From Deltaproteobacteria bacterium TL4 (lineage in GTDB: Bacteria; SAR324; NAC60-12): 23,245 nucleotides of DNA. How positions within the stretch are numbered: position 1 is the stretch's first letter; the number at the start of each line of letters is the position of its first letter. Position numbers: made by a program. Positions 12,001 through 17,360 of this stretch are shown in pieces. The DNA lies in contig JBBCAX010000099.1 of the NCBI GenBank assembly GCA_051382335.1, positions 1 to 23,245 on the forward strand. Reading direction: 5' to 3'.

Positions 12001-15000
12001 ATCTGATTCTTATTTTCCGAAGAGCTTTGCCAGTAATCCTCTTTTTTGGTGTAAAGGAGGAATAGGAACAGTTTCTCCTAAAATACGCCTGGCAATTCGC
12101 AAGTACGCTTGCCCTGCTTTAGACTCTTCATTCAAAACAGCGGGAATGCCTTGATTCCCTGCAACCACGACATTTGAATCTTCTACAACCACTCCAAGCA
12201 AATCAATGGCTAAGATATCCATTACATCTTCCTGACTCATCATCTCTCCAGACTCAACCATTGCTAAATTGAGCCGAGTCACAACCAAGGCTGAAGGAAT
12301 ATCATTATGCTGCAGCAAGCCAATCACACGATCCGCATCACGAACAGCTGAAACTTCAGGTGTAGTAACCACAATGGCACGATCCGCAGCAGCAATCGCA
12401 TTTCTAAATCCTTGCTCTATCCCCGCAGGACAATCGATCAGTATGTAATTAAACTCTTTTTTTAACTCCGCAACGACAACCTTCATTTCCTCAGGATTGA
12501 GCGCCGTTTTATCATCAATTTGAGATGCTGGTAAAAGATACATGTTTTTATTGCGTTTATCGCGGATAAGAGCCTGGCGTAATTTACAGCGTCCTTTGGC
12601 AACATCTACCAAATTATAAACAATTCGATTTTCAAGCCCCATGATGATATCCAGGTTTCGTAAACCAATATCAGCATCCACGGCAACAACACTTTTCCCC
12701 GCTGCTGCCAAGGCACAACTCAAATTAGCTGTCGTCGTTGTTTTGCCTACACCGCCTTTTCCTGATGTAATTACAATGGCTTCACCCATGATTTCCTTCA
12801 AACTATAAGATGGTACTTAAACTCATCGATCCCTTTGACTCTAACAATTCCAAACAATAACAGCACCCCATTGCACTGAATTTGTCTTTCACATCACAAA
12901 CAAACACTAACCACAACTCCCAAGATAAACCTGAGATAATTTATTTGTCTGCTGTTCTTTTAAAGTAAAAAAATCAACGATATTTGTGATACAAATCAAT
13001 CACAATCTTTCCTGTCTTCAAACCCTTCGCATGTTCCAAATAAACCATCTTGGGTCCTGGAGGAAGATCTTGATGGGACTTTTCTGTAACCTGAATAAAC
13101 TGTTGAGCTATACCAAGCCGCCCCGACTGTATCTTTAACCCAATGATCACCGACTTTTTATTCCCCCGTGCTCCCGCATGAACCATCCCCCGAATGGTTC
13201 CCAATACGTAAACATCCTTCTCTGATATCACTTCGGCACCAGGATTGATATCCCCCAACACTAACAAACTCTGAGAAGTTGTGACCTTTTGCCCTGATCG
13301 TAAGGTTTGCTTGATCACCAAAGCCTCTTCCGAAGCAATACCTTGGGCAATTTGATCCGTAGGAGAATCAAGCTCATCTGCTGCCGACTCTTGCATCTGA
13401 TTGTGAGAGACTCTCTCAGCAACGATCTCCGAAATCCGTTCAGGGAAATCCTCATTTTTTGCAGTGGAAGAACCTACTGAGATTTTTTCCTGTGATGAGC
13501 GATCCTGCTTATCCCCGCCTGCTTTTTGTAAAGACGAGGGTAATTCCTTACAAAGTACTATATCCCCTTCTTCCTGCAGAATCTGAACTAATTGAGCATA
13601 TTCCTCATGAGAAACATTACGACTCCCCGCACGCAAGACAATGTGGGAACCCTTAAAAAACTTCTTTGAAGTCTCTTTCCCCAAAAGACTCTTCAATTCT
13701 TGAACTAACGCTTCAAAAGGAGAGTCTTGGTCAATAAGCAACCCTAATGCGCCTCCCTGACCTTTAATTTCTACTAATACTTTGTCTAGGATTTTGGATT
13801 GCATGAATCTATCATTGTCCTTAGTCACACCAATGTTGATTTAATTTCATTTTAAAAAAATTTTCTTTTTCATACCGAACCTTTTACAAAGATACAACAC
13901 CTTTATAGATGTTTTCTACTTTTCATCAGTCTAACACTAAAACACATCATCTTCTCAATAACGCTTTTGACACTGTCCTCCAATTGGTATATAAGCTAAT
14001 AAAAACAAACTTAGGAACGTTATGAGTCTTTAATTTTTTGTGCTCGTCAATCTCTCATAACTCAATTTCAATAGAAAATTCTCCCTTGTATTATATGCCA
14101 CAACCTAATATTCCTATTTTTATTGTAGATGATGAATCTGCAATTTGTGAAACGCTTGAGGCTATTCTCAGGGACGAAGGCTATGAAGTAGAGTCCTTCC
14201 CTGATGCTGAATCTTTTCAAAAAAGGATCCTTGATTCTTTCCCTGCATTAGTCCTTTTAGACATCTGGCTACCTGGATTGGATGGAATGGAGATGTTATC
14301 CAAACTAAAAGAAAAGCATCCCGATTTACCTGTAATTATGATGAGTGGACATGCAGGGATAGAATCCGCAGTCAGCTCAATCAAACTTGGAGCATACGAT
14401 TTTCTAGAAAAACCGCTGCACCTTGAAGTACTCTTGGATAAAATATCAGGAGCCTTATTTCATAAGGGTAAACTTCAACGTGTGGAATTACCTTCTGATA
14501 TGCGCACTGAAATTGTGGACTACCGAAGTGAAATTAAAACCGATGTGGTTTCTCTCGTTGATTCAGAGGTACCTCAACGGACCTTGAGAAAAAACGTTGT
14601 CCTAAACGGGACAGGACTACTCAGTGGACGAAATACAGGAATCATCTTAAGCCCTTTAGAAGTAGACCAGGGCATTATATTTCAAATGTTAGATGGACAA
14701 CCGATTAGAGCACATATTACATCACTTGAAGATTTTTCATTAGACCCCACACATACACACTTTACCGCTAATTCAACGGCACTAGTTGACAATAATAAAC
14801 GCATTCGCACCGTGGAACATTTACTTGCAGCACTCCATATGTTCGGTGTTACTAATGTTTCCATTAAGTCTGACGAAGAAATTCCTAATATTGATGGATC
14901 TGCTGATGAATTTTGTAAATTAATTCAAGAAGCAGGGATTGAGGATCAAGCTGTTCCAGCAAAGAAAGCAGTGATTCATAAAAAAATCGCACTGGGAGAA

Positions 15001-17360
15001 GAGACCCTTAAAGAAAAATATATCTACGTAGAACCCGCTGATGAATTCGAAGTCATCATGAGAGTCGATTACCCTGCTCCCATTTTTGAACAAAAATTCA
15101 CATTCAATCCTCGACTCCAATCTTTTCAAAAAGAAATTGCCCCCGCACGATCATTTAATACCTTTGAAAATATTGACATGGCGCAAAAACAAGGAAAGGT
15201 CGGAAGTGGTTACCTCTATTCGCACATCATCATGTATGACGGAAAAGTCATTAACACGGAACTCCGTTACCCTGATGAATTCGTTCGACATAAAATTCTT
15301 GACTTGATCGGAGATCTCTACTTGCTAGGATACCCCATCCAGGGACGAGTTGTGGCAAATATGACCTCACACGCTTACAATCAGGCTCTTGTTCAACAAA
15401 TCTATACTGCACTCATCAGCGACACAAAATCATAAATAGATAACTTTATGCGACGTAAATCTAGAGAATACGCACTTCAAGTGCTTTATCAAATGGAAAT
15501 TTTAAACTCTTGCGACCCCTCTGACATTGACAATGCCTTTGAACATTTGTCTATCAAAGAAATAGAAAAACCATTCACCAAACAACTGATCCTGGGAACT
15601 CTTGCGCACCAAAAAGAGATGGAAGCCTTACTCATTCAAAATACAACAGGATGGAAACTGCACCGTCTCTCTGTGCTCACAAGAAATCTTTTACTCATGT
15701 CAATCTACGAAATGTGCTTTGGGGAAGGAGAATCTCATCAAGTCGTCATGAACGAAGCGATGGAACTGGCGAAGAACTTTCTCGATGAATCAACTCATGC
15801 TTTTGTAAATAGCGTACTTCAAAAAGTGCATGACCACTTTAATTCCTCTCAATCCCTCGATTTTCCTGAACAACTCAGAGAAAACATCGAAAAACAAAAA
15901 CAAACTCAACTCAAAATTGCACGAAAACGGAAAGCTAAAGGCATCACTGCTCGAGAAATTGAACTTCAAAAAGCAGCAAAGGAAAACATTAAAATCGTAC
16001 CACAACCGAAAAGGAAGATAATCCGTTCTAATAAACCGTAAAGCTTTAAAAGCAAAAACAAACGCACGTCAAAAAACAACGCAAAACGCAGTTCGGAAAA
16101 CAATATAAGGAAAGAGAGGGGGACTGTCTCCTAAAAAACAGGAGACAAATATCAGAGGGGCTTTCAAGCAGCATCTTGTTGAGACTTCACCTGTTCTACT
16201 AACTGAAAAAACACTTCGGGCTCTTCAACAGCCAAGTAAGCCAGAACTTTGCGATCCAACTCAATGTCAGCTTTAGATAAACCATAAATAAATTGGCTGT
16301 AGCTCAAACCCTGCGCACGCACAGCAGCATTGATTCGAACAATCCATAAACGCCGGAAATCACGTTTTTTCGTCTTACGATCACGATATGCGTACTCTCT
16401 CGCACGATCTACAGCATCCTTAACCGTCCGTAGAAGACGACGTCTTCCTCCACGATAACCTTTTGCAGCCTTAAAATAATCTTTCTTACGTTTTCTAGCA
16501 TGTAATGCTCTTTTTACACGAGCCATGACTCTCCTTTAACCATTGGGTAATAGGCATCTGATCGAACCTTCATCTGCTTTGGAAACACAACCTTTTTTTC
16601 GAAGTACACGTTTGCAGTCCTGACTACGCTTACTCATTCCATGCCGAAGATAGGCTTTCTTTCTCTTAATCCGGCCCTTCGAATTGATCTTAAACCTTTT
16701 TGCAGCACCACTATTCGTTTTAACTTTATAACCTGCCATTTTCGTCCTCTACATTCACTCACGTAATTTTATTTTTTTACCGGTGCCAAAACCAAGGACA
16801 TATTCCGGCCTTCACTCCTGATAGTCTGCTCTAATGTCCCAATTTCACCAACAGCATCAACAAATTTCTCTAGCAAATCCTGACCAATCTCTTTATGAGT
16901 CACTTCACGACCCGTAAATGAAACAGTCACCTTAACTTTGTCCCCATTTTCCAAAAACTTGATAGAATTTTTTACCTTATATAAAAGATCATGCTCTTCT
17001 GTTTTGGGACGGAGTTTGACCTCCTTGACATGTATAACTTTCTGTTGCTTTTTGGCAGCGTGTTGCTTCTTACTCAGCTGATATTTGTACTTACCATAAT
17101 CCATTAAACGACAAACTGGAGGATTCGCCGTACCAGAAACCTCAACAACGTCTAACTTTGATTCCTCTCCAAGTCGTAAAGCCTCCTCTATTGATACAAT
17201 ACCACGTTGCTTCCCCTCGGCATCAATCAAACGCACTTCACGAGCATCGATCTGATCATTGATAGGCGTTTTTTCTTCTGACTTCTTCGTTTTACTGGAT
17301 ATATGCGTTCGCCTGATAGCTATGTTGTACCTCTCTAAGAGTATTTTTTATGTGGTAGGC

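Follow-up and report, generated by a model that had tools for sequence, protein, structure and literature searches.

A receiver domain of NtrX type is fused to the only LpxC of Deltaproteobacteria bacterium TL4 and may place the enzyme under two-component control

The only LpxC of Deltaproteobacteria bacterium TL4 is fused to an N-terminal two-component receiver. The REC-LpxC gene (14095..15435, + strand) lies in a window of 23,245 nucleotides, the whole stretch of DNA that was analysed, and encodes a protein of 446 aa. As judged by sequence comparison, the receiver derives from the regulator by which lpxC is activated in related bacteria; therefore, the kinase probably controls the enzyme, and not the gene. 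The first-pass annotation had read the fusion as direct two-component control of LpxC. Comparative evidence makes control at the protein level a well supported reading; an effect on catalysis is the part that we infer. That control by NtrYX moved from the transcription of lpxC to a post-translational level, whatever the route by which LpxC output is affected, is given a probability of roughly two in three.

LpxC commits the cell to lipid A synthesis, and it is chiefly at this enzyme that outer-membrane synthesis is controlled. The modes of LpxC control described in the review sections consulted are proteolysis, partner proteins (LapB, MurA, Ght) and transcription, and do not include phosphorylation of LpxC.

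Organization of the REC-LpxC protein

REC-LpxC is encoded by a single in-frame, stop-free ORF. Pfam identifies in the product a Response_reg domain at aa 8-117 (E 3.8e-28) and an LpxC domain (PF03331) at aa 161-437 (E 1.9e-72, 244 bits, model positions 1-267 of 268), and detects neither AAA+ nor HTH domains. The protein scores above the family cut-off of TIGR00325 (lpxC; 214.5 bits vs 187.25). A PF03331 profile search of the TL4 genome, which is 100% complete with 2.6% contamination, matched one place only. Both the uniqueness of this lpxC and the coexistence of an intact receiver and a complete LpxC in one protein, claimed in the first-pass annotation, are thus borne out, the latter by Pfam, TIGR00325 and residue checks. 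D56, S84, K106, E241-H242, H399-K400-D403 and H426 are located where they had been placed; the acidic pair, previously assigned to positions 11-12, is D12-D13.

The fusion is not an assembly artefact, because the same fusion was found, in frame, in 42 of the 44 other genomes of the TL4 family (the two misses are 51% and 57% complete), and is also present in named isolates. The earlier count of homologues carrying both PF00072 and PF03331 was confirmed as well, in 119/119 other listed proteins of 435-468 aa, 64-70% identical to REC-LpxC, drawn from the best 120 of 6322 matches.

Origin of the receiver and of the fusion

The NtrX-type receiver (aa 8-117; 14116..14445, +), delimited by Pfam and typed by NCBIfam and a free-NtrX profile, features D12, D13, D56, W58, S84-G85-H86 and K106. 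The codon of the predicted phospho-acceptor D56 is located at 14260..14262 (+). Asp is found at this position in 326 of 328 distinct fusion proteins, and D13 (325), S/T84 (326) and K106 (327) are similarly conserved. Over 383 non-independent pairs, the receiver has a median dN/dS of 0.10, and LpxC one of 0.085.

NtrX is the best NCBIfam receiver match (NF051870), and NtrX structures (5m7n, 4d6x) are the best receiver matches in PDB. The REC-LpxC receiver ranks first of the 245 receiver domains of the genome on the free-NtrX profile (129.8 vs 104.8 bits), and is the only one carrying the NtrX signature. The whole protein reaches 109.9 bits on the NtrX full-length model, against a 600-bit cut-off. 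On these scores, and with AAA+ and HTH absent, REC-LpxC is NtrX-derived, and not an NtrX. In a receiver tree of 121 columns, the backbone of which is unresolved, free NtrX falls among long fusions (90/79); the close-clade receiver is found there on a long stem of its own (0.58, 100/98), and not with free NtrX.

Representatives at 50% identity form a graded series, headed by REC-AAA+-HTH-LpxC of about 735 aa. Long forms are REC-AAA+-LpxC proteins of 650-736 aa, most of which include an HTH; middle forms are REC-HTH-LpxC proteins of 491-505 aa; short forms, of 412-483 aa, are organized as REC-LpxC. One cluster of long fusions is annotated as NtrX by JGI. A GAFTGA-like motif, which contacts sigma54, was found in 0/29 long fusions. 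Free NtrX proteins carry G[AS]FTGA in 10 of 14 instances, and three more are one letter off.

Fused LpxC domains all lie on one side of a single branch (SH-aLRT 94 with 136 rows, 99 with 49 rows). Long and short fusions are repeatedly sisters (P0136/P0125; P0130/P0148/P0155; support 100 each), and AAA+ and HTH have therefore been lost more than once, the receiver being retained. Three LpxC lacking a receiver (P0163, P0181, P0187) are nested in the fusion clade. Receiver loss can plausibly occur in this clade, unless these are gene-call truncations. An in-place fusion involving the family's own lpxC was considered and rejected, as a single clade of all the LpxC of the phylum (16 of the 49 rows) is opposed by the AU test (p = 1.9e-5).

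The fusion is the sole LpxC type in 42/42 family genomes having any LpxC. Outside the family it is often a second LpxC, as in 4 of the 5 genomes of one set and 3 of the 7 of another; 13 Nitrospirota genomes similarly host a canonical LpxC and a further match. Intact ntrYX was found in 5 of 7 second-copy genomes checked. Fusion, intact ntrYX and canonical lpxC are all present in G089, G090, G092, G192 and G196. In the cultured strain Desulfoprunum benzoelyticum DSM 28570, no LpxC other than the fusion was detected, and ntrY is orphan; in Desulfopila sp. IMCC35006 and Desulforhopalus sp. IMCC35007, the fusion coexists with canonical lpxC and intact ntrYX.

An orphan NtrY as candidate kinase

None of the neighbours of the REC-LpxC gene in the window is a kinase gene, and the lack of a cognate kinase had been recorded as a gap. 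This is now filled by a strong candidate. A profile built from the NtrY kinases encoded upstream of distant fusions identifies one orthologue in the TL4 genome (E 1e-145; next match 9e-50), a protein of 746 aa with the organization HAMP-PAS-HisKA-HATPase, encoded at C183:4060-6297 (-). Its H-box is intact, and no receiver gene adjoins it. The Pfam NtrY_N domain, matched in 4/4 operon-linked kinases, has no match in this protein at E 0.001. A search of the genome for DUF4390/PlrP gave no match, and neither did the controls.

An NtrY-type kinase is encoded directly upstream in 12 of the 39 informative loci of distant fusions. In the close clade, ntrY is adjacent to the fusion in 0/75 informative loci, and in TL4 the two genes reside on different contigs; the pairing in TL4 consequently rests on orthology and elimination among 177 kinase-domain proteins. 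It is conceivable, but quite improbable, that another kinase or a small-molecule donor phosphorylates the receiver, and that NtrY has a different partner. TL4 encodes 203 receiver proteins besides the 177 with a kinase domain, and for PlrR, an NtrX-family protein of Bordetella, there seems to be a second phosphodonor (PMC13001219). Against this stand the NtrX signature, exclusive to the REC-LpxC receiver, its first rank on the free-NtrX profile, and the DHp helix 1 that the C183 NtrY shares with operon-linked NtrY.

NtrY is present in 44/44 other genomes of the family, including drafts of 1.3-2 Mb. In the family, ntrX follows ntrY in 0/43 informative loci, vs 35/38 in non-family relatives with a plain LpxC, a contrast to be read as a single evolutionary event in the family and not as 43. 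In the order of G088, ntrY is orphan too in 4/4 informative genomes having the fusion as sole LpxC.

These data also bear on the view that the receiver is a tolerated relic, LpxC being constitutive and the receiver a folding or dimer module, or that it works in reverse, as a phosphate sink with feedback on NtrY, or on an NtrX present in the same cell. Both the receiverless members of the fusion clade and the five genomes in which intact ntrYX and canonical lpxC reside with the fusion would fit. Yet D56 has been kept almost throughout although AAA+ and HTH were repeatedly deleted, and the TL4 family has retained NtrY without a free NtrX to buffer. We regard a relic or sink as rather unlikely, and favour REC-LpxC as a response regulator.

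The LpxC domain and the lipid A pathway

The deacetylase domain (aa 161-437; 14575..15405, +) includes E241, H242, H399, K400, D403, D407 and H426. In E. coli LpxC the Zn ligands are H79, H238 and D242, and E78 and H265 are catalytic (PMC13333357). H242, H399, D403 and E241 are found in 312/312 fusion-type domains, and H426 in 311/312. The sequence thus retains every Zn ligand and every catalytic residue, and activity is predicted. Among the matches listed by Foldseek, solved LpxC structures gave target-normalised TM values of 0.81-0.92.

The segment corresponding to insertion II, which forms the acyl tunnel, was mapped by alignment to 15148..15231 (+). Here N355, T356 and Y373 are found in 211/211 close-clade domains, and H377 in 210/211; other residues dominate at these positions in 72 plain LpxC domains. 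The four residues are polar or bulky, where LpxC has a hydrophobic acyl tunnel. In addition, Ser occupies the T191 position in 207/211 close-clade domains, and Leu replaces the usual N-terminal His (position 176) in 208/211. Such near-invariant signatures might denote a deacetylase that has specialised, its preference for acyl chains having changed, and that was transferred as a second, inducible LpxC whose receiver serves on-demand remodelling of lipid A; the patchy spread of the fusion, and its second-copy status in Nitrospirota and Desulfobulbales, are in line with this. In the TL4 family and in D. benzoelyticum, in contrast, the enzyme is the sole LpxC type, and the catalytic apparatus is complete. 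Since lpxA, lpxD, lpxB, lpxK and kdtA each have one above-cut-off match in the TL4 genome, the sole LpxC must perform the housekeeping reaction there. Specialisation is compatible with the response regulator reading, and is deemed unlikely.

The contrast formerly drawn with FtsH/LapB proteolysis is uninformative. LapB (NF008757, a narrow model that matched E. coli alone among 14 controls) was above cut-off in 0/88 genomes of the phylum, fused and unfused alike. LapB absence as the cause of the fusion was accordingly rejected, unfused relatives being equally devoid of it.

Promoters and flanking genes

The REC-LpxC gene and the divergent minC-minD-minE genes (11719..13828, -) are separated by a common intergenic region (13829..14094), in which consensus scans found neither sigma54-type nor sigma70-type sites. 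Among the plain lpxC of the phylum, 6 of 17 have a sigma54 consensus site upstream, as do 3 of 4 canonical copies; none of the fused genes has one (0/29 and 0/60, i.e. 0/89), the shuffled-sequence means being 0.04-0.5. The 11 plain lpxC lacking the site include all five of f7, a family that has free NtrX. The nusB gene (15448..16041, +) starts 12 bp downstream of the REC-LpxC gene, and is probably co-transcribed with it. A nusB-like gene, recognized by resemblance in 13 of 80 loci, is all that is conserved in the close-clade neighbourhood.

A model for the control of LpxC

REC-LpxC would descend, in pared-down form, from a fusion of ntrX with lpxC, and would serve NtrY as its response regulator. 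This membrane sensor, encoded on C183, would set the phosphorylation state of D56, and this in turn the amount of LpxC activity in the cell; both the phosphotransfer and its effect on LpxC output are what we infer from the comparisons above. As to direction, our guess is that the phosphorylated form would be the more active, NtrY being mostly a restraining phosphatase, because of continuity with Desulfovibrio, in which lpxC goes up in a kinase mutant, and because of the analogy to CheB.

AlphaFold2 (137 sequences) modelled both folds (pLDDT 90.8), with a pTM of 0.74 for the two-domain chain. The linker (aa 118-160; 14446..14574, +), which is the site of AAA+ and HTH in longer relatives, is modelled with low confidence at 126-134 (pLDDT < 50) and is plausibly flexible there. 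This would suit a sub-case of the same model with a different effector step, in which phosphorylation alters the location or lifetime of LpxC, and not catalysis, through NtrY docking, receiver dimerisation or proteolysis. In Neisseria, LpxC is known to be recruited to the membrane by Ght, and control through proteolysis is known as well (PMC12444477). However, S134-D135 in the linker and H109-K116 in the receiver are at least 90% conserved in 24 close relatives and could mark a contact surface, and allosteric tuning of LpxC activity by MurA and LapB is known. Control of location or lifetime is considered unlikely. Prediction of a complex between receiver (1-140) and LpxC domain (146-446) scored 0.01 in a run in which the controls did not fold, and was weighed neither for nor against contact. 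Direct allosteric gating, taken alone, falls slightly short of an even chance.

The fuller scenario starts from a transcription factor that became joined to what its own target gene encodes, and then shed the parts that bind DNA and activate sigma54. NtrYX would so have turned into a direct phospho-switch acting reversibly on the catalysis of LpxC. The compact REC-LpxC would have spread between phyla as a plug-in, pairing with the resident NtrY and making native ntrX and lpxC dispensable. We hold this tentatively, at a little under even odds. With one protein as output, NtrY, the signal of which is unsettled, could be followed through a single measurable quantity. The reading is testable now, as the domains are both small and soluble, and D. 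benzoelyticum, a strain in culture, has no other LpxC detected.

Comparison with known systems

The relevant precedent, absent from the first-pass annotation, which cited FtsH/LapB, is control of lpxC transcription by NtrYX. In D. vulgaris, DVU2934 is named ntrX, and DAP-chip and gel shift show lpxC to be its single target (PMC3333781); lpxC alone is upregulated in a kinase mutant of D. alaskensis (PMC4045070). The Desulfovibrio NtrY/NtrX pairs (DVU2931/DVU2934; Dde_3000/Dde_3003) and REC-LpxC share an NtrX-type receiver in a system dedicated to lpxC, the orthology resting on the gene name in the paper, and not on sequence. Desulfovibrio NtrX is a REC-AAA-DBD protein acting on a sigma54 promoter, whereas REC-LpxC lacks AAA+ and HTH, has LpxC as output and no sigma54 site. 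Loss of NtrYX in R. sphaeroides raises the lpxC transcript 8.8-fold, and LPS as well (PMC7240162). The alphaproteobacterial systems (Rhodobacter sphaeroides, Caulobacter, Brucella) resemble REC-LpxC in NtrX, the best receiver match, but are unfused, and have a broad transcriptional regulon and an indirect effect on lpxC.

Stand-alone LpxC (PF03331, TIGR00325), controlled by FtsH/LapB/YejM or MurA, have the same fold and the same Zn-binding and catalytic residues. REC-LpxC differs from these in the N-terminal receiver, the altered insertion II and a phylum with no LapB over cut-off. A receiver precedes an enzyme domain also in CheB, PleD/WspR and RpfG. The outputs of these proteins are signalling enzymes, whereas that of REC-LpxC is the committed step of an essential envelope pathway.

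Further searches, made mostly at the level of listings and outside subscription journals, likewise showed no paper on a receiver-LpxC fusion. The LpxC review PMC12444477 makes no mention of "fusion", "fused" or "response regulator", and PMC13333357 none of "fusion", "fused", "receiver" or "two-component". The one other LpxC fusion met in the literature searched is LpxC-FabZ, found in Bacteroidetes, Chlorobi and Verrucomicrobia (PMC3087551). In LpxC-FabZ the partner is a C-terminal metabolic enzyme, whereas in REC-LpxC it is a signalling domain.

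A receiver-LpxC fusion as sole LpxC

The gene at 14095-15435 (+) is a single stop-free frame of 446 aa (REC-LpxC), in which Pfam places a receiver at residues 8-117 and an LpxC domain, also exceeding the TIGR00325 cut-off, at residues 161-437. The fusion is real and conserved. As the first-pass annotation had claimed, it is the sole lpxC of the genome (100% complete), which features one PF03331 match, and both domains recur in 119/119 other homologues among the matches listed. The nearest named of these are from SAR324-cluster genomes, by which the phylum is presumably SAR324. 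The acidic pair, assigned by that annotation to residues 11-12, is D12-D13. An AlphaFold2 model (137 sequences) displays both folds with a flexible linker between, and matches solved LpxC structures. Genes lpxA, lpxD, lpxB, lpxK and kdtA all score above cut-off. LpxA (contig C202, 29124-30074, -) is 317 aa long, and its extra N-terminal stretch re-matches the model start.

The architecture is public, as anticipated: 17 of 30 Atlas matches are clusters with both Pfams. The earlier searches had shown no paper on it, and neither did ours of literature accessible without subscription, most matches being judged by their list entries. Known controls of LpxC in the consulted parts of PMC12444477 and PMC13333357 are FtsH/LapB/YejM, MurA, Ght, Lon and transcription, and term searches of both reviews retrieved no mention of a fusion. 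LpxC-FabZ is the only LpxC fusion mentioned in excerpts of PMC3087551, and none appears in the passages covered of PMC11877204 and bioRxiv 2021.11.05.467447.

Distribution and origin

The survey of the phylum covered 88 genomes. In the window's family, 42 of the 44 other genomes have the fusion as sole LpxC type, the two without a match being 51% and 57% complete. Genome G051 hosts two copies (loci L254 and L255) with matching upstream neighbours, probably an assembly duplicate. In the other families, each of the 43 genomes carries stand-alone LpxC. Among the best 80 of 243 loci, fusions of the close clade (60-68% identical) are found also in Nitrospirota, Desulfobulbales, Syntrophobacteraceae and further groups, with three named isolates among their carriers; outside the family their distribution is patchy. 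In the order of genome G088 (121 genomes), seven have a short fusion, as sole LpxC in four and as second copy in three, and three have a form of 727-739 aa. In the latter (L287-L289) full-length NtrX-LpxC is the only complete LpxC, and no ntrY is found within the stretches covered. In the phylum of genome G091 (151 genomes), 13 have another match beside canonical LpxC and 10 a fusion-like match alone, as judged from E-values and from the length of the open frame wherever it was listed. A single clade of all LpxCs of the window's phylum is rejected by the AU test (p 1.9e-5, 49 rows); gain of the fusion by the family ancestor, with loss of its native lpxC, is therefore probable.

Clustering at 50% identity gave representatives of which the best 150 were taken and 55 scanned for domains; they form a graded series of REC-AAA+-LpxC (650-736 aa, HTH in most), REC-HTH-LpxC (491-505 aa) and REC-LpxC (412-483 aa). 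Those with a name belong to Nitrospinota, Deltaproteobacteria and Entotheonellia, and one long-fusion cluster is named NtrX by JGI. Fused LpxC domains all lie to one side of a single branch (SH-aLRT 94; 99 in a second tree of 49 rows). Long and short fusions are sisters more than once in the LpxC tree, and the AAA+/HTH middle domains were thus lost repeatedly. Motifs resembling GAFTGA, the sigma54-contact motif, are found in 0/29 long fusions; G[AS]FTGA is present in 10 of 14 free NtrX. The receiver is intact: of 328 distinct fusion proteins, 326 keep D56. Median dN/dS values are 0.10 (receiver) and 0.085 (LpxC), from 383 non-independent pairs of 103 genes, some genomes having been entered twice. 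Three receiver-less LpxCs nest within the fusion clade, which counts against constant receiver retention.

A candidate kinase

The frame was usable in 129 of 160 loci. A kinase of 742-749 aa lies directly upstream of distant fusions in 12 of 39 informative metagenome loci (27 without, 7 further too short), with the architecture NtrY_N-HAMP-PAS-HisKA-HATPase in all four scanned; in the close clade none was found directly upstream in 75 informative loci (8 too short). A profile of six such kinases identifies one orthologue in the window's genome, at 4060-6297 (-) of contig C183 (E 1e-145 versus 9e-50 for the next match). No receiver gene adjoins it; its neighbours are ccmE and a 5'-nucleotidase-like gene. 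In many family genomes (L202-L231) ntrY lies right after ccmC-ccmE, as confirmed by Pfam in the window's genome and judged by resemblance in the others. This order is of interest because NtrY of Brucella is, by the title of a paper, reportedly a redox sensor. The H-box HEIKN of the C183 kinase is intact, including the H+4 Asn, which is required for phosphatase activity in a Bordetella homologue, according to a portion of PMC13001219.

NtrY is found in 44/44 other family genomes. No ntrX follows it in 43 informative family loci (two more end at contig edges); outside the family it does in 35 of 38 genomes. The family's best matches to free NtrX are generic activators (40-45% identity). Among 245 receiver domains of the window's genome, the fused one has the top score against a profile built from 14 free NtrX, whose signature it alone carries; support in the receiver tree is too weak for confirmation. 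In the order of G088, orphan ntrY genes are also found in the sole-fusion genomes G088, G112, G126 and G127; the G114 locus is cut by the contig end, and G178 has no ntrY match at E 1e-90. Genomes with a second-copy fusion keep intact ntrYX in five of seven cases; ntrX is internally deleted in G168, and ntrY is orphan in G091. In G168 (L303, 1178-1450) the ntrX remnant behind ntrY, of about 90 aa, joins the first 33 receiver residues in-frame to the HTH, reflecting either ongoing decay of ntrX or a misassembly. Both plain-LpxC control genomes keep ntrYX.

Promoters and proposed control

Stretches of 400 bp upstream of lpxC were searched with the sigma54 -24/-12 consensus (score at least 7/8). 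Sites precede 6 of 17 plain lpxC genes of the phylum (5/8 in sister family f2, 0/5 in family f7) and 3 of 4 canonical copies; none precedes 29 fused genes of the family or 60 others of the close clade. Averages for mononucleotide shuffles were 0.04-0.5. The D. alaskensis site quoted in an excerpt of PMC4045070 agrees with the consensus used.

In sections of PMC3333781, ntrX DVU2934 (REC-AAA-DBD), with cognate kinase DVU2931, has lpxC as single target. In the orthologous kinase mutant lpxC alone is upregulated, which would make the kinase a restraint on the regulator (PMC4045070, in part). In Rhodobacter sphaeroides, loss of NtrYX raises lpxC 8.8-fold, indirectly, in a passage of PMC7240162.

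Two-component control of LpxC at the protein level, as first proposed, has comparative support. Gene order, orthology and complementary loss argue for NtrY/REC-LpxC pairing; phosphotransfer, the effector step and the direction of the effect are inferred. Most likely NtrY sets the phosphorylation state of D56 and thereby LpxC output, replacing an older route in which NtrY acted via NtrX on a sigma54-type lpxC promoter. The effect may be on catalysis, dimerisation, localisation or turnover. As to direction, by continuity with Desulfovibrio, phosphorylated REC-LpxC would be the more active form and NtrY a restraint. We give post-translational control of LpxC output, by any route, about two chances in three; direct gating by the receiver is a tentative reading, slightly under even odds. 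REC-LpxC gives a known kind of regulator a new output and is likely a new mode of lipid A control.

Active-site surroundings

Zinc-binding and catalytic residues are all retained in the close clade. N355, T356 and Y373 are found in 211/211 domains, H377 in 210, Ser at the T191 position in 207, and L176 replaces the usual His in 208. Clade residues were placed in insertion II by alignment, with residue labels in part from PMC13333357. This signature could shift the preference for acyl chains or belong to the gate. Receiver-less protein P0163 has the same N, T and H, and the signature is therefore independent of the receiver.

Other loci in the window

Genes at 1119-6353 (+) encode a PEP-utilising enzyme (PPDK_N plus mobile domain, 905 aa), a UbiA-family protein and an AMP-binding enzyme, and look like a small biosynthetic unit. 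A 660-aa hydrophobic protein (8905-10887, -) and a 120-aa protein (8498-8860, +), both without Pfam match at E 1e-5, adjoin an rmlC-like gene. A complete rRNA operon (16S, two tRNAs, 23S, 5S, tRNA) spans 17356-22825 (-), upstream of infC-like and rplT-like ORFs.
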